This document shows positions 4,301-30,225 of a DNA stretch of 30,225 nucleotides, one piece after another; position 1 is the stretch's first letter; the number at the start of each line of letters is the position of its first letter. Source of the stretch: Gammaproteobacteria bacterium (lineage in GTDB: Bacteria > Pseudomonadota > Gammaproteobacteria > Berkiellales > Berkiellaceae); assembly GCA_016874315.1 (NCBI GenBank), contig VGTX01000001.1, forward strand, positions 1 through 30,225, given 5' to 3'. The notes beneath the pieces are model-generated. The model worked only from the letters and a program-made list of their open reading frames with translations, did no database searches and had not been told where the DNA came from. The translations under genes and the position numbers were made by a program.

Positions 4301-6877
4301 ATGATGGATGAGATGATAGAAGATATTACTGGTTCAAAATCTGAATCGATAGCATTCACTTTAAATAAGTACGGACTTGTAGAATATGCATCTTGGTTAG
4401 ACTTATTAGAGGAAATGCAAAGAGCAATTATTTTTTTTCAAAAGATACCGCAACAAACTCCTTGGGCTGCATACATTCGCCAAGAAGCAATCATATTGCA
4501 AAAAGATATCGCAATATTGCAGCACAATATGCGCAATACACAACAAGACCAACTTCATTACTTCTTTGAATCCGCATCCTATTTTCAAATGTTTATGTTC
4601 ATCACAGCTATATCTGATTACATAGAGGATTCGACGCTTTTTTTAGATTTTTGTGACTCTATAGAACATATACAAACTCATGATGAGCTATATACTTATC
4701 TCTCTGAATATCAAAAAAAAATCATAATTCCATTTCCTACAGAAGAGGATGATCTGGAGAAAGATCATGATGCACTTGATAAACTTGCTTTAAAAGCTGC
4801 GCAATGGAAAGAGCGCGATCAAAAAAGTTGGATTAATCCAAAGTTGGTAAATATATTTATTACAAGTGTTGAAGACCAGATTGCTGAAAGAAAATTAAAG
4901 TTCGATGCCTTTAAAGAGCAATGCGATATATTGATTGTTCAATTAAGACAATGGCAAGTAGCCTATAATATTCTTTCCTCTATAGAGTCAGACCCAGCAG
5001 CGAACGATCAAAAAACCATAGACCATGTCATTGAGTGGGAACGTGCGCTAGAAATGAGTACTCAGCTATCTGCTCCAATAATATCAAATTATCTCGATCT
5101 TGCGATTGAATATGGATGGATATATTCCGATCGAGTGAGTGCTCATTTAACAGAATATTGGACGCTGAGTGAAGAGGCTATAAAAATCTGTCAACAGGTT
5201 GAGAGAAGGTTAAATAGTTATTTTCCAATTCTTAAAGAATTTGATTGTATAGACCTATATTACGGTTATCGAAACTGGTCAGTACAAATGAGGTACGATC
5301 GTTATCGAAATTATTCCGGCACAAATCTTCATGAATATATCGATCGAAATGAAAAAAGCAATTTTTTAACGTATGCAATCAATGAAGATTTATATTCTGA
5401 ATTGATATTACCATACCTTCCAGAAAAATCGGATTTTTTCAATTCATTAGAATACCATTACAGTATATCTAATGACCTATTAGAACAGGCCAAATTTCAA
5501 TATGATCAATGTTTAAATGCCAATCATAACAACCCTGAAGAAACGCTCGATCGATATCAAAAATGGCGCAACACACTCGAAATTTTACACAGCGCACATA
5601 ATACAGGTATACATATCCAATGGGATAGTCTTCCTCGCATAAGAGAAAAATTCTTTCTAATATTGAAGGCGCATTTTATTGACCGTAACACACATATTAC
5701 CGAGCTTAAATTAAAGTTAAAGAATATATTACAGCACTGGAATTCATTGAGACCCTACAGCGGATACCCAACTCTTGTGTTGAGCGCTGTAGGATTTGTA
5801 TATTCGGGCCCAAGCCTTTGGGGGCGCGGTGTTCTTACGTATGGAATGCTAGAAACACTATTGTGGTTAGATTTTTTCCTTTTACTCAATCCTGCAGAGA
5901 GAGTAACACTCCAATCACCATATCTTCTTGATGATCAATACCAGAATATTACTTATTTGATAGCTGAAGTAGAATTAAAAAACATCATTACAGCATGGGA
6001 AGAATTATTGATTGATTTTTTTCCATCGATAAGATTGCTATCCGATCGATCTATGTCCCTGCAATACCCCTCGATCGAAAAATATAATTTTTCGGATATC
6101 ATTTTCCATGATGATGTCCTTACTCCACCGCTTGATGGAATGGACACATTAGAAACACAACTTCGCTTTATTGCATATGTTTTTCTACTCGTCTGTAAAG
6201 AAAGTCACTCATTAGAAGAGCTTGTCGCTATTGATATTCAAAAAGAACTTGAAGGCTGGATAAAATCTCATCGCGGTTTAGATTGTGTTCGAACAACGAA
6301 AAGCGAGGATGAGCTCTCTGATTTAGATCTCGAATGCATGAAACCTGTAGAGTATTTCTCAGCCGATCGAAGAGTGCCTGAAAAAATACAGCATATTATG
6401 AGCACTATGGTAAATTGCGGCGCGATTAGTCGTATAAAAAATGTGGCTTATTTATGTGAAACGCTCTTTTCGCTGATTTTAGTGAGCCCATATCACCAGT
6501 ATCTTTTTGTTGAAGAATGGAAAAAGACCCTTAACAATGTGGTTAATCTCTCTTCTGGATTACAATTTGTTAACAGTCTTCGGAATTCGTGTAATATCGC
6601 TATTAGTATAATGCGGGATGTATTTGCAAAAATTAATTTTGTGTGGCGTTCAGACACAGATTATATAAAAAAAGAATCGATTCAAGCATACAGTAATGTT
6701 ATAAAAAATATTAATAAAGCCTATAAGCCTGAAAATCAAAAATGCCCGCATCCAACTGAATTGAGATATGAAGCTCAACATCTCCTTTTCTCAAAAGAAC
6801 AGTTTATAGATGCTCATCCGAGTAAAGATAATTTACATAAAGACGCTCTTGTCTATCATATTAAGAATAACATATAG
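4301..6877 (+). CDS. Large hypothetical alpha-helical protein (858 aa), effector-like orphan
   Basis: Uninterrupted 2.6-kb ORF in AT-rich sequence, so almost certainly coding. No signal peptide and no recognisable catalytic motif. One weakly hydrophobic stretch near aa 487-530. Confidence 0.8.
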   Translation: MMDEMIEDITGSKSESIAFTLNKYGLVEYASWLDLLEEMQRAIIFFQKIPQQTPWAAYIRQEAIILQKDIAILQHNMRNTQQDQLHYFFESASYFQMFMFITAISDYIEDSTLFLDFCDSIEHIQTHDELYTYLSEYQKKIIIPFPTEEDDLEKDHDALDKLALKAAQWKERDQKSWINPKLVNIFITSVEDQIAERKLKFDAFKEQCDILIVQLRQWQVAYNILSSIESDPAANDQKTIDHVIEWERALEMSTQLSAPIISNYLDLAIEYGWIYSDRVSAHLTEYWTLSEEAIKICQQVERRLNSYFPILKEFDCIDLYYGYRNWSVQMRYDRYRNYSGTNLHEYIDRNEKSNFLTYAINEDLYSELILPYLPEKSDFFNSLEYHYSISNDLLEQAKFQYDQCLNANHNNPEETLDRYQKWRNTLEILHSAHNTGIHIQWDSLPRIREKFFLILKAHFIDRNTHITELKLKLKNILQHWNSLRPYSGYPTLVLSAVGFVYSGPSLWGRGVLTYGMLETLLWLDFFLLLNPAERVTLQSPYLLDDQYQNITYLIAEVELKNIITAWEELLIDFFPSIRLLSDRSMSLQYPSIEKYNFSDIIFHDDVLTPPLDGMDTLETQLRFIAYVFLLVCKESHSLEELVAIDIQKELEGWIKSHRGLDCVRTTKSEDELSDLDLECMKPVEYFSADRRVPEKIQHIMSTMVNCGAISRIKNVAYLCETLFSLILVSPYHQYLFVEEWKKTLNNVVNLSSGLQFVNSLRNSCNIAISIMRDVFAKINFVWRSDTDYIKKESIQAYSNVIKNINKAYKPENQKCPHPTELRYEAQHLLFSKEQFIDAHPSKDNLHKDALVYHIKNNI

Positions 6878-11718: not shown

Positions 11719-12069
11719 ATGTCTTTGTTAGAAAAAACACTTATTGCTGCTCTTGAAGATCGAAAAGCAGTCGATTTAGCACGAGTAGATGTGCGTCCTT
11801 GGAGCGATCAGTTTCATGTATTCTTAATTGCAACAGCAACATCAGGCCGTCACGCAATGGCAATCGCTGATTATTTAAGTGAAACACTTAAACATCACGA
11901 AGCTTTCGGGAAGCCTGTACGCATCCAAAAAGATGCAGAAGCAGAATGGATTTTGATGGATTTTGACACGATTATTGTCCATATCATGCAACAAGAAGCT
12001 CGTCATTTTTATAATCTTGAAAAGCTTTGGATGACTCCGTCTGCAGGGCCGCGCTCAACATCGCTATGA
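11719..12069 (+). CDS. rsfS: Ribosome silencing factor RsfS (Iojap)
   Basis: ALEDRKAVDL..VDV, FLIATATSGRH..AIA, EWILMDFDTIIVHIM, RHFYNLEKLW. Confidence 0.93.
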   Translation: MSLLEKTLIAALEDRKAVDLARVDVRPWSDQFHVFLIATATSGRHAMAIADYLSETLKHHEAFGKPVRIQKDAEAEWILMDFDTIIVHIMQQEARHFYNLEKLWMTPSAGPRSTSL

Positions 12070-20018: not shown

Positions 20019-20531
20019 ATGATCTCTTATTATAAAATGGTTCTTTTACAGATCAGCCTCTTTCTTTTGGCAGGGTGTCATCTTGTTTACGATCCATTGA
20101 TGTTCGAATGTGAGTTGCCACCGTTTTTTGTAACAACACTGGCATGGCCTAAAGAATCACAGCAAGTCCTTATGGAAAGATTAGATTTTCTAGGCTTAGT
20201 ACCAGCGACAACCCTGCATGATGCGCGGTTTGAAATAGTGCTAGATGATATTCAGCATGACTCTATAGAGCATTGGATTGATACGGTTGATCATGTGTTT
20301 TATCGCAACTACTATTCAAAAATGCATGCAAAATGCGTTGATAGACTCACCGGTGTTGTTATCTTTGATAAAGTTTTTCAAGCTACTCAAACACTCAAAA
20401 CCGATCCACATGTTTATCTGACAAATCAAATGGCTCTTTCAGAGCTCTATTGGAGTCAGCAAATCGATTTATTTGACCAACTTACTCGTGAACTGAAAAC
20501 ATTATGCGTAATGAATCCTTCTGGCAATTAA
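20019..20531 (+). CDS. lptE: LPS-assembly lipoprotein LptE-like (divergent)
   Basis: Lipobox LAGC at aa 17-20, 170 aa, located immediately after leuS as in leuS-lptE-holA. Confidence 0.62.
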   Translation: MISYYKMVLLQISLFLLAGCHLVYDPLMFECELPPFFVTTLAWPKESQQVLMERLDFLGLVPATTLHDARFEIVLDDIQHDSIEHWIDTVDHVFYRNYYSKMHAKCVDRLTGVVIFDKVFQATQTLKTDPHVYLTNQMALSELYWSQQIDLFDQLTRELKTLCVMNPSGN

Positions 20532-21301
20532 ATTGGGACGATTTAGATCAGACGAAATGTATTATCATCCAGAGTGATGATGAAAGTGCTGTTGAAGCGC
20601 TTTTACTTGAGCTGGCAAAGATCTTTCATAAATCTTGGATAAATCCACATGAGCTGTTTTACGACAGCTCAGACTCTGTTAGCCCACAGTGGCAACTTGT
20701 TTCGAATATTAATTTATTACCATATGCCACAGACGATCATATAACTTTCTGTAACCCTTCAGCTAGTCAAAATCGCATGCAATCTCAGAATATACCGGAT
20801 GATACTAGGGTGGTATTTTGTGCTCCTCCATCGCTAGAGCAATGGAATGATTTTCTCAATCATTGCTTTGGGAATTGCAATTTTTCTGAAAAATCGCCTT
20901 GTCCTCAAACACTATGGCTTGCACATACGTATTTGCAGGAGTTAAGGCTTTTTCAAAAAGTTTTGCCATATCATGAAGAAGAGCTTACTGTGGACCGATT
21001 TGATTTAATAGCAAAACTTATGGAATCTCCTGGCCTTATCAATCATCTCTCTCAAACAGAGATGAATCAATTAACTTATTCCTGTGATAAATTAAATCAA
21101 GCTCTCTGCATTCCAATGATTTTCCGAGAAGTGCTCCCCAATTCACTACAACAGATTGTGCAGAAAAAACAAAATGCCAGCCGGTCTGAGCAAGATCTGT
21201 TGCAAGAAATATATCAACGATTTTTAAAGGCGGTCGCACAGTCTGAATTAGATTCTGCACAGACTCTGCTCCAACTTTGGCTCTCACTTTGGGCTAAATA
21301 G
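20504..21301 (+). CDS. holA: Probable highly divergent DNA polymerase III delta subunit
   Basis: Overlaps lptE in the holA position. N-terminal beta-alpha pattern CIIIQSDDESAVEALL and a C-terminal helical pattern ending LLQLWLSL. Short (265 aa) with few conserved motifs, so the call rests mostly on synteny. Confidence 0.5.
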   Translation: MRNESFWQLNWDDLDQTKCIIIQSDDESAVEALLLELAKIFHKSWINPHELFYDSSDSVSPQWQLVSNINLLPYATDDHITFCNPSASQNRMQSQNIPDDTRVVFCAPPSLEQWNDFLNHCFGNCNFSEKSPCPQTLWLAHTYLQELRLFQKVLPYHEEELTVDRFDLIAKLMESPGLINHLSQTEMNQLTYSCDKLNQALCIPMIFREVLPNSLQQIVQKKQNASRSEQDLLQEIYQRFLKAVAQSELDSAQTLLQLWLSLWAK

Positions 21302-23840: not shown

Positions 23841-25289
23841 ATGACTCTAAACTTTCAAGATATTGCCGAGAGATTTTATAATCCATGGCATCTCGATACA
23901 CAAACATTGCTCAATGTTGTTGATAATATGTACTCACCAGGTATGATTTGCGCAGACTTGTATTTAGAATACAATAAACGCCACTCCTGGAGCGTAGAGG
24001 ATTCACTCTTCAAAGACGGTTGTGCACAGCAAGGCTATGGCGCAGGATTAAGAGCAGTCCATGGTGAGCAGATTGGTTTCTCATCTACATCAGATTTATC
24101 TCCTTCTTTACTTATGAAGAAAGCCGCTGAAACACGTGCATTTGTATCTGCAGATGAGCATAAATCTAGACGGCTAGAAATGCATTCTATACCGACTTAT
24201 GCGGCATATTATAACCAAGAAATATTAAATATTGATCTGAACGAAATTAAAGATTTGCTTTTATCCATTGATGCCGCGGCGCGTGCACGCTCTCCAATGG
24301 TGTCACAAGTTCTCATCGATCTAGTCTATTCACAATCCGAATGCATTATTGTGCGTGAGGATGGACGTATTGGCTTCGACCGGCGGCCACTCATTCGTAT
24401 GAATGTCACGATGTTGATTTCAGATGAATCTGGAAAAACATACCATGGATACTATGGATTCGGAGGGCGATATGATTGGGCACAATGGCGCAGTTTATGG
24501 AATATTCCCGATCTTATCGAGGAAATTTATCGTTTAGCATGTTTAGAAAAAACAGCACAACCCGCACCTAGTGGGGTAATGCCTGTGATTGTAGGTGCTG
24601 GTTGGCCTGCTGTTCTTATTCATGAAGCTGTTGGTCATGGAATTGAAGCCGATTTCAATCGTAAAAAGACATCTATTTATCACGATCAGAGAGGGCAGCT
24701 TGTTGCTTCACCACTCTGCACCATTATTGATGATGGTACAGTCACAGGATTGCGTGGTTCTTTAAATATTGATGATGAGGGTGAGCAAACTCAGAAAACT
24801 GTTTTGATTGAAAACGGTATTCTAAAAAATTATTTATTTGATAGACAAAATGCAGCTCTAATGGGAGAGAAAACAACAGGTAATGGACGACGTGAATCCG
24901 CATTCCACTGCCCTATGCCTCGTATGACCAATACATATCTACAAGCTGGATCGGATTCTGTCGAAGATATGATTGCGTCTGTAGATGATGGAATATATGC
25001 TGCAAACTTTGAAGGTGGCAGTGTAGATATTACATCTGGCCAATTCGTTTTTAGTGCTCATGAAGCTTATCGTATTCGTAATGGTAAAATCGCAGAGCCT
25101 GTGCGCGGCGCCACTTTGATTGGGATCGGACCAGAAGTGCTTAAACAAATCTCCATGGTTGGTAAAGATTTTAAACACGACCCTGGTGTGGGCACATGTG
25201 TGAAAAATGGACAGTCTGTTCCTGTATCTGTAGGACAGCCTGCAGTTAAGATCGATCAACTCGTTGTTGGAGGTGAAAATGAAAAATGA
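23841..25289 (+). CDS. tldD: Metalloprotease TldD
   Basis: ADLYLEY, DRRPLIRMNV, GWPAVLIHEAVGHGIEADFNRK, DDGT...RGSLNIDDEG, GNGRRES, PMPRMTNT, GTCVKNGQSVPV. Confidence 0.95.
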   Translation: MTLNFQDIAERFYNPWHLDTQTLLNVVDNMYSPGMICADLYLEYNKRHSWSVEDSLFKDGCAQQGYGAGLRAVHGEQIGFSSTSDLSPSLLMKKAAETRAFVSADEHKSRRLEMHSIPTYAAYYNQEILNIDLNEIKDLLLSIDAAARARSPMVSQVLIDLVYSQSECIIVREDGRIGFDRRPLIRMNVTMLISDESGKTYHGYYGFGGRYDWAQWRSLWNIPDLIEEIYRLACLEKTAQPAPSGVMPVIVGAGWPAVLIHEAVGHGIEADFNRKKTSIYHDQRGQLVASPLCTIIDDGTVTGLRGSLNIDDEGEQTQKTVLIENGILKNYLFDRQNAALMGEKTTGNGRRESAFHCPMPRMTNTYLQAGSDSVEDMIASVDDGIYAANFEGGSVDITSGQFVFSAHEAYRIRNGKIAEPVRGATLIGIGPEVLKQISMVGKDFKHDPGVGTCVKNGQSVPVSVGQPAVKIDQLVVGGENEK

Positions 25290-26661
25290 TTTTATCATTA
25301 GCGCACGAAGCGTGCGCAACGAACACACATCAGAAAAAATAATATCCCAACTTCGTAATTTTATCGATCTGATAAATACTCGATCGGAATGCACTGATTG
25401 GGAAATAACTTATAGTGAAGAAGATAGCCTCTCTTTAACAGTGCGTAATAGCCTTACAGAAGAATGTATGCAGTCTGCAACGCGCCAGCTGGTAATTAAT
25501 GTATTAATTGGTGCGCAAAGCGGAACTGCAACATGCTTAGGAGCTCAATGGTCTGATTGGCTTGAAACATTAGAACATGCTATTGGAATTGCACAGCTAT
25601 CTCAACCAGATCCATTTCATGCACTTCCTCCGGAGCAGTATTTTTCACAACCCATTCCAACACTCGAAATATGCAGTCCTGAAGAGGTCTCTTTTCAAAG
25701 TCTTGTTAATCGCGCAATAGATCTGGAAAAGATCGCATCAGGATTACAAGGACACCACCAAAAAGGGACTCGTCTTCAATCTGATGGAGCGTCTATTGGT
25801 GCTGATTTTCATTGGATTGTTCGTGCAAATAGTAAAGGGTTATGGGCAATCATACCGTCTAGTTCATTTGCTCAATCTGTATCGCTTTTGGCGCATTTGG
25901 ATGACTATCATGAGTCAGATGGTGCTTATGAATATTGTCGCCGGTTCACAGATTTAAAAAATATAGATACGTTTGCTCTACTCGCTCAAGATCGTGTTTG
26001 TGGAAAAATTGGAAAGAAAAAAATTCCAACAGGGAATTATCCAGTGATTTTTAGTCCTCGTTGTGCAAGAGGCTGGATTAAGCATCTATGCTCAGCATTA
26101 TCAGGTCGTTCACAGTATTTAAAATCGACATTTTTACTCGATTATTGTGATAAACCCATTTTGCCTCAATGGGTGAATATCTCAGATAATCCACATAGCC
26201 CATGGGGGAAATCATCATATCCTATCGATAGTGATGGCTTAGTGACTAGGCCTCATGAATTTATTGTCGACGGAGTGGTAAAAGAATATTTACTATCATA
26301 TTATTCTGCGTTGCGATTAAATCGTACACCAAATGCCCTAGGTGATGGATTAAAAAATGTCCACATGACAACTAACATTGAGTCTCTTAATGAAATTGTA
26401 AAAAAATATCCTCAATGCATCGTCGTGGATGGTGTTATGGGTAACGGTGTAAATTTGATTCAGGGCTCATATTCGCAAGGAATTGAAGGGTTTTTATATC
26501 AAAATGGAGAAAAGATTCATCCCTTACAAGAAGTAACAATCGCTACAACATTGTTGCCATTTTATCAGTCGCTTGAATATCATGCTAATGATGCTGAAGG
26601 TGATTCTGGCTTTCAAATCGGTAGTCTTGCATTTCCAATGATGCGCGTATCATCTCAATAA
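25279..26661 (+). CDS. pmbA: Metalloprotease subunit PmbA/TldE
   Basis: SD ggaggt then ATG 25279 overlapping the end of tldD; YPVIFSP, LSGRSQYLKSTFL, DSDGL, YSALRL, VMGNGVNLIQGSYSQGIEGF, EVTIA. Confidence 0.88.
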   Translation: MKNDFIISARSVRNEHTSEKIISQLRNFIDLINTRSECTDWEITYSEEDSLSLTVRNSLTEECMQSATRQLVINVLIGAQSGTATCLGAQWSDWLETLEHAIGIAQLSQPDPFHALPPEQYFSQPIPTLEICSPEEVSFQSLVNRAIDLEKIASGLQGHHQKGTRLQSDGASIGADFHWIVRANSKGLWAIIPSSSFAQSVSLLAHLDDYHESDGAYEYCRRFTDLKNIDTFALLAQDRVCGKIGKKKIPTGNYPVIFSPRCARGWIKHLCSALSGRSQYLKSTFLLDYCDKPILPQWVNISDNPHSPWGKSSYPIDSDGLVTRPHEFIVDGVVKEYLLSYYSALRLNRTPNALGDGLKNVHMTTNIESLNEIVKKYPQCIVVDGVMGNGVNLIQGSYSQGIEGFLYQNGEKIHPLQEVTIATTLLPFYQSLEYHANDAEGDSGFQIGSLAFPMMRVSSQ

Positions 26662-26666
26662 CAAGA

Positions 26667-26709
26667 TTCAGCAGAAAAGCCTTCATGATGAATGAAGGCT
26701 GCTGCTGAA
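26667..26709. terminator. Probable bidirectional terminator hairpin between convergent pmbA and hpf
   Basis: ttcagcag-aaa-agccttcat-gatga-atgaaggct-g-ctgctgaa: 9-bp plus 8-bp stems. U tracts are weak. Confidence 0.55.
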
Positions 26710-26717
26710 GACCAATG

Positions 26718-27110
26718 TTAGTCGTGCTGACATCCTGAATGATCGCCATGGTGGTGATGATGTCCATGATGTCTTTGATAAGCTTTCCCTCTCAAATGCT
26801 CAACATGATTCTCAAAAGCCTCAAATGTTTCAAGGAGTGTAGAGAGCATATCTAGACCGGTTTTTTTGATTGGCTCACAGTTTAAATGACTAAATTTTGG
26901 ATCCCACTTGATCTCGAAATGATGATGATCGTCATGATGCTGTCCAGTTTTATTCACTGTAATATCCAGTTTTTGCAAGTCAGGATAAACATGGCTGAGA
27001 TGTTCATAACGATGATGAATCCAGTGCTCACATTCAGTTTTTTCATGGCCAGAAAGCGACCCATTTAAATGAATATGCATATCAAGTTTCTCAGTACGCT
27101 TTTGCGACAT
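26718..27110 (-). CDS. hpf: Histidine-rich HPF/RaiA-family (ribosome hibernation) protein
   Basis: Directly downstream of rpoN. MHIHLNG, WIHHRYEHLSHVYPDLQKLDITV and GLDMLSTLLETFEAFENHV map onto HPF MQLNITG, FVTAKFAKLEQYFDRINQVYVVL and GQDMYAAIDGLIDKLARQL. SD aggag lies 9 nt before ATG 27110 (track start 27119). Confidence 0.72.
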   Translation of the reverse strand: MSQKRTEKLDMHIHLNGSLSGHEKTECEHWIHHRYEHLSHVYPDLQKLDITVNKTGQHHDDHHHFEIKWDPKFSHLNCEPIKKTGLDMLSTLLETFEAFENHVEHLRGKAYQRHHGHHHHHGDHSGCQHD

Positions 27111-27122
27111 AACTTTCATCTC

Positions 27123-28370
27123 CTATTCTTTGACTTTATGATTCGACTGCTCGCGTGTTCGACGTTGATGTGAATTTGCGATCCCTAGTTCTTCACGATA
27201 CTTCGCAATTGTTCTTCGCGCAATACAAAATCCTTGTCGATTGAGAATTTTTGTCAATGCTTCATCTGAAAGCGGGTTATTTTGGGGTTCATGTTCAATA
27301 ATATTATTCAGAATATGCTTAATGGCTCGATCGGAGACAGTGTCTTGGTGGTGCTTGATTGAGCGTGAAAAGAGTTTTTTACAGTCCCAAATTCCAAACG
27401 GAGTTGCAATCGTTTTGTGTTGAAGTGTGCGAGATATCGTTGACTCATGTAAGTTTAATTTCAGCGCAATATCGCTCAAAATCATCGGCTGTAAAGCCGA
27501 TTCGCCATAGGTAAAAAAATCTTTCTGATATTCAGCAATTGCTGAGGCTACTCGTAACATCGTATTAAATCGCGTTGTGATCATTTTTTTTAAAACCACT
27601 GCTTCTTGATAATGCTTTCGGCATTCCTCTCGTTTTGAAAGATTTTCTGGCCAATCAAGAATCTCAATATTTGGGACAAGTGCCGGGTTTAATCGCGCGC
27701 TATATCCATGCTCATTTTTTTCAATAAGAATATCAGGGAGATTGTATTTTTCTTCTATGGATAGAGTCGGCTCATAATGCATAATCATATTAGCTGGACT
27801 CCAGTACAATAAATTAAGCTCTTTTGTATTTAATTCTTCTAATTTATGGCTAAAATCTCCATGACTCAGATACTCATAAAGAGCTTGATATTGTTTTAAA
27901 CCTTGAAGCTCAGGTCGATACTGTAATTGCCACAGTAGACATTGGCGCGTCGTGCGAGCTCCTAAGCCTATGGGAGATAAACTTATCAACCATCGATCGA
28001 GGGCATTTTGTGTGTTGCTTGAAAAACTTTCAAATACCTCTATTGGACAAAAGCCTCTTGCATCAATCGCTTCAATAAGTTCCATGGCAGCGGGCCAGTA
28101 AGAGTAATCTAATATTGTTCGATCTAATGAATCATGCATGAGAGCTGCGATTGGGCAGATCGAGCGATCGGGAATATTTTCTAAAAAAGATTCATCTGAT
28201 TTTGATGATGATGGATATGTAAAATCAAAAAATGGATTTTGCTCTCTCCAAGTGGACAATGTGCGCTCAATTTCTTCATGGGAAAAAGATAATAATTCAA
28301 TAGCTTGCTTTAACGATGGAGTTAAGCTGAGATGCATGGATTGATGCATTTTCAGCGCTTGTGTTTTCAT
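27123..28370 (-). CDS. rpoN: RNA polymerase sigma-54 factor
   Basis: Region I LSLTPSLKQAIELL, PIGLGAR..RQCLLWQL, PDILI, LQPMILSDIA..LNLHESTISR, PLSDEAL, RpoN box ARRTIAKYRE. ATG 28370 preferred over TTG 28382. Confidence 0.95.
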   Translation of the reverse strand: MKTQALKMHQSMHLSLTPSLKQAIELLSFSHEEIERTLSTWREQNPFFDFTYPSSSKSDESFLENIPDRSICPIAALMHDSLDRTILDYSYWPAAMELIEAIDARGFCPIEVFESFSSNTQNALDRWLISLSPIGLGARTTRQCLLWQLQYRPELQGLKQYQALYEYLSHGDFSHKLEELNTKELNLLYWSPANMIMHYEPTLSIEEKYNLPDILIEKNEHGYSARLNPALVPNIEILDWPENLSKREECRKHYQEAVVLKKMITTRFNTMLRVASAIAEYQKDFFTYGESALQPMILSDIALKLNLHESTISRTLQHKTIATPFGIWDCKKLFSRSIKHHQDTVSDRAIKHILNNIIEHEPQNNPLSDEALTKILNRQGFCIARRTIAKYREELGIANSHQRRTREQSNHKVKE

Positions 28371-28435
28371 ATGCTCTCTCAAAAATATTACGCAAATTCA
28401 CGACTCTATTAAAAGAATATGCGTTTTCAATCTGA

Positions 28436-28487
28436 GATAGGAGCATGTTCACGTGCCTATCAAAGCATAGCAAGCGTTTCGGCTATG
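28436..28487 (-). terminator. Tandem hairpins after the 410-aa gene, candidate terminator
   Basis: On the minus strand right after the stop: catagc/gctatg stem (28466-28487) followed by cttt, then a gatagg/cctatc stem (28436-28461). Confidence 0.35.
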
Positions 28488-29720
28488 TTAAAAGCAGTGG
28501 TGTGTCGAATAGAACTCTTGAATATCCTCTCTCGGATTAAATCTTAATATTTTTATTTTTCTCGGGCTTGAAGCCTCAACAGCATGAGATAATTCTGCAA
28601 TCTCTTCTAGACATTCTTCTGGTTTGAGAATGTGGAGAGGACTCGTCACTTCTTCAGCTGATGAAAAGGATAGACTGCTTTGAATATGATTGCAGCGCTC
28701 TGCAATATCTGGTTGCTCGCTAAACGTTAAAACTTGCTGAACCCGATTGAGTTGATGGGTTGCGGCGAGTAACGCACTCTCTTCTAAAACACATTTGTAT
28801 TGTTCCATGATACTTCTGTAGTTGCTTTCATGTAATTCAAGCTGAGCGATATAATGCTCTTGATCAAGAGAGAGTTTTGTTTGTATATCCCTGTATTTTT
28901 TTAGAGATTCTAATATTTCCTGTAAGTTTTTATTTAGGCGGCGGTATTCACTGATTTGTGTTCGATGACCAATATGATCTAAATTTGTATGACTATAATG
29001 TGGTTGAAGAACACGCAATTTTGACAAGATGTGATTTTTCTCACACTCCAATTCTCTAATTTTTTGAATATTATCCATATATTCTTGAGCAATTCTCGCA
29101 TGATTTTTGATCTTCGAATTATATCGCTGAACTATTTTGTTCTTTGATATCTTATCATTATCAACTTGCCAATCGGTTTTGATATTGTCTCGATTTTGCC
29201 TCATATGCTGAATGGAGGTAATGATGCTGTCACGATCGGAGTCTTGTATATTTTCCTGCCCAAGCATGAGAGGATTGTGAGATTTTTTTTCTAGAATGCT
29301 TGTATAGACATCCTCGGTCAGGCGCATAACCCATTCCATATCAGAAAAGTCATCAAACGCACTTAAGAGTTCGATTGCAAAAAGCGATGGATATTTCACA
29401 AGATGATAATAAAAAAGACTATAAAATCTCAAAGTTCCAGCATGGATATATAAATCTATAAAGCCTTTTTGCAAAATGCTTTCTCTATGCTCAATGAAAG
29501 GAAAATTCTCCATATACAGAAATTCTAAGCCATCGTATATAAAGACAAGCTTCGAAAACACCCCAATACCGGCCTCAATCACGTTATTGTCGAGTTTGGT
29601 TTTTGATAAGTCAACGATCAGTTCTTTGAGCTTTTCAATTTGCTCAGCAGAGAAAGTATGATTAGGAGATTCTATCGCAATTGTAATAATGTCACGGATA
29701 TCAGAGAGAATATGAGCCAT
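28488..29720 (-). CDS. Hypothetical coiled-coil protein (410 aa), effector-like orphan
   Basis: Long ORF with an N-terminal helical domain, a central heptad-rich region and an acidic C-terminal tail. No family motif recognised. Confidence 0.78.
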   Translation of the reverse strand: MAHILSDIRDIITIAIESPNHTFSAEQIEKLKELIVDLSKTKLDNNVIEAGIGVFSKLVFIYDGLEFLYMENFPFIEHRESILQKGFIDLYIHAGTLRFYSLFYYHLVKYPSLFAIELLSAFDDFSDMEWVMRLTEDVYTSILEKKSHNPLMLGQENIQDSDRDSIITSIQHMRQNRDNIKTDWQVDNDKISKNKIVQRYNSKIKNHARIAQEYMDNIQKIRELECEKNHILSKLRVLQPHYSHTNLDHIGHRTQISEYRRLNKNLQEILESLKKYRDIQTKLSLDQEHYIAQLELHESNYRSIMEQYKCVLEESALLAATHQLNRVQQVLTFSEQPDIAERCNHIQSSLSFSSAEEVTSPLHILKPEECLEEIAELSHAVEASSPRKIKILRFNPREDIQEFYSTHHCF

Positions 29721-29781: not shown

Positions 29782-30225
29782 TCAATGAGATGTGCTTTTT
29801 TTCGGTTTGTTTTTTATAACATTGCTTATCGGGTTGATATTTGGAATATGAGCTGTATGCAGAATTTTTTGATATGTTTTATGTGCATTCTGATATTCTT
29901 GTGTTCTAAAAATCAAACTCTCATGATTGGTTTGTATATGAGATTCTACTACAGACATAAAGTGTGCAATTAAACGGAGGTTTTTTTTCAACACTTGTAT
30001 ATCCGATTCTATCTTATTGATATATGTTCCTTGAAGCATAAGTTCTTTTTGAAATTTTTTGATTTTATCTTGTATGGCTGTTTTATTGGAATAGCACCTG
30101 ATTTGCGTGAAAAATGATTGGCTCTTAAATTCCGAATATACAGTCTCAACTTCTTCAATGCAGGCTTCGAGATTACGATAATATTCTTTTTCCGCATCGA
30201 GTTTTTTTTGCAGAAGGTGAATTTG
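29782..30225 (-). CDS. Hypothetical coiled-coil protein, 5'-truncated by the window end
   Basis: The frame of the 85-aa track ORF stays open to position 30225 (QIHLLQKKLDAEKEYYRNLEACIEEVETVYSEFK...IQDKIKKFQKELMLQGTYINKIESDIQVLKKNL), so the gene starts outside the window. Confidence 0.75.
   Translation of the reverse strand, partial: QIHLLQKKLDAEKEYYRNLEACIEEVETVYSEFKSQSFFTQIRCYSNKTAIQDKIKKFQKELMLQGTYINKIESDIQVLKKNLRLIAHFMSVVESHIQTNHESLIFRTQEYQNAHKTYQKILHTAHIPNINPISNVIKNKPKKSTSH

Follow-up and report, generated by a model that had tools for sequence, protein, structure and literature searches.

A histidine-rich gene following rpoN in a Berkiellaceae genome as a probable, strongly diverged descendant of hpf

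Introduction

The closest described counterparts of the gene treated here are the short hibernation factors of the HPF/RaiA family (S30AE, PF02482) encoded after rpoN, and we took as comparators Escherichia coli HPF (PDB 4v8h, 6h4n), Legionella pneumophila RaiA (Lpg0476) and Francisella tularensis RaiA on the 70S ribosome. In intracellular gammaproteobacteria without RMF, the rpoN-linked short factor is a RaiA that silences 70S ribosomes (PMC12977618; bioRxiv 10.1101/2025.11.25.690415). Here, we analyse a histidine-rich open reading frame (ORF) that follows rpoN in a 30,225-nucleotide stretch of DNA (the window) from a gammaproteobacterium of the Berkiellaceae, corresponding to positions 1 to 30,225 of the forward strand of contig VGTX01000001.1 (assembly GCA_016874315.1). 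The genome of the window, G000, is a single draft of 1.15 Mb that is 86% complete, and every gene reported below as not found in it was looked for within that scope; G001 and G002 are its congeners.

Several of the histidines that short HPFs naturally carry serve as contacts to ribosomal RNA (rRNA). In F. tularensis RaiA, rRNA is contacted by R8/H9, K23, K26, H29, R83, K87 and H96; His9, His29 and the C-terminal His96 are thus among the contacts, and His96 stacks on G692 (bioRxiv 10.1101/2025.11.25.690415). Histidine-rich tracts are known from other proteins, such as SlyD, whose His/Cys-rich C-terminus binds Ni2+ and Zn2+ (PMC3292732). In mycobacteria, zinc controls ribosome hibernation by means of Mpy and Mrf (PMC6094098, PMC7431043). 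Our literature search returned no paper that joins hibernation factors with histidine-rich tracts.

The ORF of the window resembles the short HPF/RaiA proteins in its position after rpoN, its size class and its predicted fold and, as in Legionella, no RMF was found in the genome. It has a basic residue at the equivalent of K23 (R37), histidines at the equivalents of K26 and R/H29, and a His pair at the place of the C-terminal His that stacks on rRNA. Unlike these proteins, it gives no sequence match to the family, has Y72, D76, K81, R84 and the G-H-H motif replaced, and is extended by a His loop of 8 residues, a His/Cys tail of 17 residues and a further 10 residues at the N-terminus, with a His content twice the family mean.

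We consider it very likely that the ORF descends from hpf, on the basis of its position, of a graded series in its congeners and of its predicted fold. The fuller reading that we favour, and to which we give about an even chance, is that this bacterium, host-associated and with a reduced genome, has in the ORF a fast-evolved positional ortholog of the short hpf/raiA linked to rpoN, encoding a RaiA-like factor with metal-binding appendages.

Results

A coding gene in the position of hpf

In relatives of G000, hpf was found directly 3' of rpoN at 34 of 34 loci, and a PF02482 gene was present in all 40 sampled relatives. A six-frame search of G000 with PF02482 gave no match, and the genome has no other candidate. 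The order of rpoN, small His-rich ORF and convergent pmbA and tldD is the same in G000, G001 and G002, three genomes with identities of 30-35% in RpoN, 37-45% in PmbA and 56-73% in TldD, and an ORF of 116-133 amino acids (aa) has been retained at the site in all of them (Table 1). Along this single syntenic site the PF02482 score forms a graded series, from 60.9 bits in G001 through 18.3 bits in G002 to no match in G000.

The features that set the ORF of the window apart are also seen in its congeners. The beta2-beta3 loop is His-rich in all three genomes (THHHNFH in G001, KEGDHH in G002 and QHHDDHHH in G000), and the His-rich tails of G000 and G001 begin at a conserved C-terminal R/D-H-H; G002 has no tail. 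The tail of the G001 HPF, RHHHGKRHDDHLDLHHDQE, is similar to that of G000 and is found alongside a helix alpha-2 that keeps Y72, D76, K81, R84 and K88. Since G001 bears its tail on a canonical helix alpha-2, we conclude that the factor acquired the tail while it was still functional in hibernation.

In the family as a whole, HPF scores lower in Pfam the smaller the genome is (rho 0.73, n=25), and its His content is higher (rho -0.67, n=25), two correlations that are descriptive because the lineages are not independent. G012 and G013 are small genomes with ordinary HPFs, and the HPFs of three other small-genome genera contain 11.7-13.3% His. An earlier reading of the window (the original prediction, made from its sequence alone) had named, as one ground on which it would fail, His-rich HPFs being already common and characterised in this clade. 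This applies by half: HPFs are indeed enriched in His in the congeners (15.5% and 13.8%) and in the three genera, and none of them is characterised.

The ORF is a real coding gene and not a chance ORF. Under a codon model trained on the genome it scored 0.247 per codon, compared with 0.25-0.29 for rpoN, pmbA and tldD, and the other five frames at the locus were all negative (-0.12 to -1.2 per codon). The frame stayed open in 2 of 20000 shuffles of the ORF sequence. A vector-derived His tag was considered and rejected: other residues break up the tract (HHGHHHHHGDH), its codons are mixed, and the 30-kb contig around it shows conserved synteny.

The first cistron of the unit encodes a sigma-54 with the Pfam domains Sigma54_AID, Sigma54_CBD and Sigma54_DBD (DBD E=3e-52) and a TIGR02395 score of 252 bits. 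A 3-nt gap with no terminator separates it from the ORF, and the sequence TAGGAG, in which the rpoN stop overlaps the Shine-Dalgarno AGGAG, abuts the first ATG, which supports the translational coupling to rpoN that the original prediction had read from a Shine-Dalgarno site including the rpoN stop. The 130-aa product is likelier than the 133-aa one because the AGGAG lies 9 nt from ATG 27110 and 0 nt from ATG 27119, and it is the 130-aa form that protein databases carry. The hairpin downstream of the ORF is the sole terminator-like site in 26400-28700.

Predicted fold

The ESM Atlas single-sequence model of the exact protein (predicted local distance difference test, pLDDT, 0.73; predicted template-modelling score 0.68) was nearest to HPF/YfiA clusters, with a template-modelling (TM) score of 0.76 both ways over 120 residues, covering the whole protein. 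For core residues 9-113, the TM score rose to 0.82 against several PF02482 clusters, and archaeal CBS-HPF fusions also appeared. AlphaFold2 without an alignment gave models of low confidence (pLDDT 52.7 for the whole protein and 56.5 for the core), with low pLDDT in the tail. Their elements (beta at 12-19, alpha at 24-44, beta at 48-56 and again at 68-71, alpha at 88-116) follow one another as in HPF, except that beta4 was left unmodelled.

In an exhaustive VIA search of the PDB, 10 of the 50 best entries were HPF/RaiA/pY chains, with 85-103 residues aligned and Z of 4.2-5.0. Foldseek searches of the PDB with the low-confidence AlphaFold2 models returned weak, unrelated rows only. On balance, these predictions speak for the beta1-alpha1-beta2-beta3-beta4-alpha2 fold of HPF as the probable one.

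Two histidine tracts on a predicted HPF-like scaffold

Of the 133 aa, 25 are His (18.8%) and 3 are Cys, which gives the ORF the highest His content among 1104 G000 ORFs of at least 100 aa (proteome 2.9%; runner-up 10.6%, a Dps-like protein), and its C-terminus is the richest in His among 1134 G000 frames. Chance does not explain this enrichment. In canonical short HPFs of gammaproteobacteria, His makes up 8.9% of the residues on average (range 5.7-11.1%, n=120), and the whole protein is enriched over this baseline (p about 2e-4). What exceeds the baseline lies solely in the loop (5 of 9 residues, positions 59-67) and the tail (9 of 17), and the remaining 94 domain residues, with 11.7% His, are not significantly over the HPF baseline (p=0.21). 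The core histidines nevertheless sit at new positions, because the canonical ones (in G-H-H, R-H-F and K-H-K) are gone.

These figures confirm the counts of the original prediction, whose 25 His, 3 Cys, tail, loop and helix segment were read as we read them, and they change its emphasis. Its histidines along both helices are there as a count but are largely a trait of the HPF family, and the implication that histidine is in itself unusual for an HPF was overstated, the true excess being the two low-complexity tracts.

In helix alpha-1, H32, H36, H40 and H43 follow the spacing i, i+4, i+8 and i+11, and the segment also contains H35 and R37. Of the 25 His codons, 21 are CAT and stand in short runs; no tandem repeat was found under the His tracts at the DNA level. 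The net charge was computed as about -4 at pH 7.5 and about +13 at pH 6.0, compared with a computed swing of 3.6-5.5 units for the large-genome members of the family; this swing is a calculation and no evidence of a switch.

Ribosomal RNA contacts in the HPF register

Residues were compared in the register of HMMER's own best alignment, which is collinear over the whole domain and in accord with the secondary-structure prediction. The numbering of the ORF is shifted against that of the family by +14 in beta1, alpha1 and beta2; insertions, in the beta2-beta3 loop and ahead of alpha2, bring this to +20 in alpha2. MAFFT placed the N-terminal 60% in a wrong register, with alpha-1 shifted by 7 and, in one run, beta2 matched to the beta3 of the family.

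The columns conserved in the family alignment are G7, T13, F31, Y72, D76, K81, R84 and K90. Kept or conservatively changed in the ORF are G7 (G20), F31 (Y45), K23 (R37) and K90 (R110), and three basic positions have become His, namely K/R26 (H40), R29 (H43) and K88 (H108). The original prediction had pointed to Lys/Arg helix positions, and several of them are indeed now His (H40, H43, H108) or lost (K81 to A101, R84 to N104). Since the sum of Lys and Arg is 15 and the family range is 12-20, the change in basic residues is positional, with no wholesale loss of charge.

Absence of detectable sequence similarity to HPF

Several observations weigh against the ORF encoding an HPF-type ribosome factor with metal-binding appendages. 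In the same register, Y72 is replaced by L92, D76 by L96, K81 by A101, R84 by N104 and H8/H9 by S/L, and the G-H-H motif after beta-1 reads G-S-L; the replacement of these residues, invariant or nearly invariant in the family, counts against canonical rRNA binding. Searched against Pfam and NCBIfam, the ORF gave no match even at E<=1, and a custom hidden Markov model of 33 HPFs from its own family and class scored 1.9 bits, which 7% of composition-matched shuffles also reached (4% when only the core was scored). The probability returned by hhalign against HPF was 0.6%, phmmer against all PDB chains found nothing, and pairwise BLAST against the G001 and G002 proteins was not significant. On the structural side, the fold evidence consists of predictions, with low AlphaFold2 confidence, and the top rows of the VIA search were thioredoxin-like proteins (Z 6.2), above the HPF rows. 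To these we add that the other genes of the canonical rpoN operon, among them its usual downstream partner ptsN, were not found in G000, which is consistent with a general decay of the rpoN locus, and that metal binding by the His tracts, although somewhat probable, is read from composition alone.

Wider searches gave a similar picture. An exhaustive phmmer search of 1.84 billion protein representatives returned the ORF itself and nothing else, a word-based protein search had no match besides itself, and a protein search of 40 relatives' genomes turned up nothing but short His-rich chance matches; the G002 HPF-like protein was also an orphan in protein search. The protein fails both the profile test and the test on conserved residues, and we therefore do not file it as a recognisable member of the family. 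The identification as an HPF made in the original prediction is therefore borne out by gene position and predicted fold and finds no sequence homology detectable by any method, including the profile comparison with HPF/RaiA that it had proposed as a check (the hhalign result above).

This nil similarity to HPF or to the congener proteins, together with an exhaustive search that places the protein in G000 only, would also fit a non-homologous replacement, in which a small gene, unrelated or arisen de novo, took the slot after rpoN once hpf had been lost. We regard such a replacement as very improbable. The predicted fold and the order of secondary structure match HPF, the best HMMER alignment runs collinearly over the whole domain, the loop and the tail have counterparts in the recognisable G001 HPF, and G001, G002 and G000 form a graded series at one syntenic site, all of which favours descent from hpf.

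His/Cys tails on other proteins of the genus

In-frame tracts of at least 5 His in 10 residues were found in three real proteins of G000 only: the ORF after rpoN, the metal-binding loop of ZnuA, and a 5'-truncated ORF at the position of trigger factor. The ZnuA loop, HSHHHHCSCGHHHAH, is close in composition to the tail of the ORF after rpoN. The truncated ORF had no match in Pfam; its full-length homologues in G001 and G002 are trigger factors, and their tails are rich in His and Cys. The motif GCQH is common to the G001 trigger-factor tail and the tail of the ORF after rpoN. The trigger factors of 28 other family genomes have 0 His in their last 25 residues.

The Dps-like protein of G000 contains 10.6% His, the second highest value of the genome, and the Dps-like tails of G000 and G001 are Cys/His-rich and metallothionein-like. 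As far as can be read from these sequences, the His/Cys tails on HPF, trigger factor and the Dps-like protein are a genus-specific pattern that was previously unreported.

Genome context

G000 encodes ZnuA, which makes zinc the more plausible metal. Neither Fur/Zur nor a CobW/HypB/UreG-type GTPase over the cut-off was found in this genome, and no SlyD-type FKBP was seen. The long-HPF C-terminal domain was also not found. Nickel storage was considered as a function and judged unlikely, as no HypB/UreG/CobW-type GTPase over the cut-off was found in G000.

These results bear on the possibility that the protein is a repurposed scaffold, that is, an HPF descendant that has left the ribosome and now handles Zn/Ni in the cytosol as a buffer, store or chaperone, much as Hpn or the SlyD tail does. 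In its favour, the key rRNA-contact positions (the equivalents of K81, R84, D76 and Y72 and the G-H-H motif) are lost; the spacing of the alpha-1 histidines and the resemblance of the tail to the ZnuA loop of the same genome also favour it, and since neither Fur/Zur nor a CobW-type metallochaperone over the cut-off was found in G000, the cell may have to buffer metals by another route. On the other hand, no Ni-enzyme maturation machinery (HypB/UreG-type GTPase over the cut-off) was found in G000, the G001 tail sits on an HPF with intact alpha-2 contacts, and the gene is still coupled to rpoN, as hpf is everywhere else. We consider repurposing unlikely.

In G000, the rpoN operon is cut down to rpoN and the HPF derivative, and the failure to find ptsN is one of the points in favour of a decaying relic, shaped by relaxed selection in a permanently host-fed symbiont, with His tracts that arose by neutral slippage or mutation bias. 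Hibernation factors evolve fast, degenerate and are often lost in small genomes (bioRxiv 10.1101/2025.11.04.686544), and a relic would also accord with the lower Pfam scores in smaller genomes, with the lack of detectable mutual similarity among the proteins of the three genus members and with the short runs of CAT codons. We nonetheless find a relic distinctly improbable. The frame is one that shuffling rarely keeps open, its codon usage equals that of its neighbours, and an ORF of similar size is found in all three genus members, with the Shine-Dalgarno sequence and the terminator intact. A compact fold is predicted, no tandem repeat was found at the DNA level, and, in a proteome with 2.9% His, mutation bias does not account for 19%. 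Moreover, the ribosome silencing factor RsfS, encoded in the same window, is well conserved (93.8 bits), in contrast to the HPF derivative, so that decay has not befallen all small ribosome factors of G000.

As to the surroundings of rpoN, the gene is preceded by lptB (ABC ATPase) in G001 and G002, and in the window by a 410-aa ORF (28488-29720, minus strand) and a partial ORF (29782-30225, minus strand), neither with a Pfam family. Further ORFs of the window without a Pfam match at E<=0.001 lie on the plus strand at 4301-6877 (858 aa), 20019-20531 (170 aa) and 20504-21301 (265 aa). Orphan genes abound in the window, as one would expect of a host-associated bacterium.

The exact G002 HPF-like protein was also found on contigs of GCA_013573075.1 and GCA_013558375.1 (runs SRR10036032 and SRR10036039; loci L052-L055), and the contig accessions of these two assemblies number into the hundreds of thousands. 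These occurrences suggest that the genus has been sequenced as a passenger in eukaryotic host assemblies.

Table 1. Features of the rpoN locus in the window and of related loci. Positions without a genome or locus label are those of the window.
Feature	Position	Strand	Basis or remark
His-rich ORF after rpoN, maximal frame, 133 aa	26718-27119	-	ORF translation
Probable coding sequence of this ORF, 130 aa (protein P0002)	26718-27110	-	Start spacing
C-terminal tail HHGHHHHHGDHSGCQHD, 9 His and 1 Cys in 17 residues	26721-26771	-	Translation
His-rich insertion QHHDDHHH, beta2-beta3 loop	26919-26942	-	Translation
Helix alpha-1 segment HWIHHRYEHLSH	26991-27026	-	Translation; helix predicted by AlphaFold2
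TAGGAG, rpoN stop TAG (27123-27125) overlapping Shine-Dalgarno AGGAG	27120-27125	-	Sequence reading
rpoN (sigma-54), 419 aa, first cistron of the unit	27123-28382	-	Pfam and TIGR02395
Intrinsic-terminator-like hairpin, 9-bp stem then TTTCTGCTGA	26678-26700	-	18 nt past the ORF stop
pmbA, convergent neighbour	25264-26661	+	Pfam PmbA_TldD
tldD, convergent neighbour	23841-25289	+	Pfam PmbA_TldD
RsfS, ribosome silencing factor	11719-12069	+	93.8 bits, well conserved
G001 HPF, 116 aa, 15.5% His	L037 2557-2907		60.9 bits PF02482; E=1e-12 to solved HPFs (PDB)
G002 HPF-like ORF, 123 aa, 13.8% His	L038 2833-3204		18.3 bits; overlaps rpoN stop
5'-cut ORF at trigger-factor position, tail KPHEHVHGPDCKHHHHSE	G000 C75:3-725 (L058)	+	~770 nt upstream of clpP
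G001 trigger factor, tail KKHQHHEGCQHHHDHHDEDHHH	L062 1474-2829	-	Trigger_N
G002 trigger factor, tail ETAHQHSSECAHIGCDH	L061 1420-2799	-	Trigger_N
Dps-like (ferritin-domain) protein, tail CCKEKENDCGKKHEQHSSCCHKKDDCSPCS	G000 C33:5594-6148 (L095)	+	Pfam 21.5 bits, below cut-off
G001 Dps-like protein, tail NSCNSCCPEKHDHHHDHHCQDHHKTKSC	L099 937-1623	+	Pfam 52.5 bits
TPR_21 (YfgM-like) protein, moderately His-rich C-terminus DHFHDLMLHNHHTHEEGASL	G000 C41:5816-6505 (L094)	-	Third for C-terminal His

Discussion

Our results suggest how a strongly diverged hibernation factor might be produced and might work in this organism. The ORF would be transcribed together with rpoN, with termination after the ORF, and translated by coupling from ATG 27110. 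The protein would keep the predicted beta-alpha-beta-beta-beta-alpha domain of HPF, to which two His tracts appear to have been added, one as an insertion in the beta2-beta3 loop and the other as the 17-residue His/Cys tail. This tail would be an outgrowth of the His pair with which the C-terminus of canonical HPF/RaiA proteins stacks on 16S rRNA. Of the Lys/Arg residues that canonically contact rRNA from the two helices, about half are now His or lost.

By analogy with RaiA, the protein may sit in the decoding channel of the 30S subunit and silence 70S ribosomes without RMF; whether ribosome binding has been retained is, on this analogy, a question to which either answer seems equally probable to us. 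The loop and the tail may chelate Zn2+ or a similar divalent metal, as the SlyD tail and the ZnuA loop would suggest. Since the tail starts at the 16S-stacking His near the platform, it would run along the path of the messenger RNA, where metal binding or protonation of the tail could strengthen the contacts with RNA. The tracts would then belong to a habit, shared across the genus, of placing His/Cys tails on abundant proteins associated with the ribosome and with dormancy (HPF, trigger factor, Dps-like).

A bolder proposal, which takes the metal/pH switch of the original prediction in its strongest sense, is that the protein acts as a switch on its own, in which metal loading or protonation of the histidines in the helices, loop and tail tunes its affinity for the 30S subunit. 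In the same proposal, the tails found in the genus on HPF, trigger factor and the Dps-like protein would form a layer of zinc buffering and sensing centred on the ribosome and on dormancy. We regard both parts of this proposal as distinctly improbable. The original prediction had argued that the acidic pH of a vacuole would restore positive charge by protonating the histidines, which overlooks that the pH of the cytoplasm, and not that of the vacuole, would matter. Were the switch to exist, translation would be silenced in direct response to the metal or energy status of the cell, with no part for RMF, Mrf or Zur.

Among described metal-binding tracts, the SlyD tail and the ZnuA loop are similar in being disordered, His/Gly/Asp/Cys-rich tracts on a folded domain. 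They differ in their carrier, which is here a predicted HPF fold and not an FKBP or a solute-binding protein, and in that metal binding by the present tracts is a likelihood and not a result. In contrast to what may be expected of proteins of the SlyD, HypB and Hpn type, no Ni-enzyme maturation genes were found in G000. The mycobacterial Mpy/Mrf system is alike in linking metal status to an HPF-family protein on the ribosome, and it serves as a conceptual precedent only. There, zinc acts via the stability of a separate protein, Mrf, which is degraded by Clp, and not via His tracts on the HPF homologue. Mrf had been cited in the original prediction as a His-rich factor, a description that the Mrf paper never uses.

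The locus has implications for the way in which losses of hibernation factors are counted. Homology surveys score HPF as lost in most small genomes (bioRxiv 10.1101/2025.11.04.686544), and such a survey would score the G000 locus as an hpf loss. Because an intact gene with a predicted HPF-like fold fills the hpf slot here, some apparent losses of hibernation factors may instead be divergence beyond recognition.

Going from G001, with a canonical core and a tail, through G002 to G000, the genus provides a natural set of constructs to ask how much of its basic face an HPF requires and what effect the His tail has. Finally, the His/Cys tails on HPF, trigger factor and the Dps-like protein of this one host-restricted genus suggest that in intracellular bacteria the handling of metals may be tied to the machinery of the ribosome and of dormancy.

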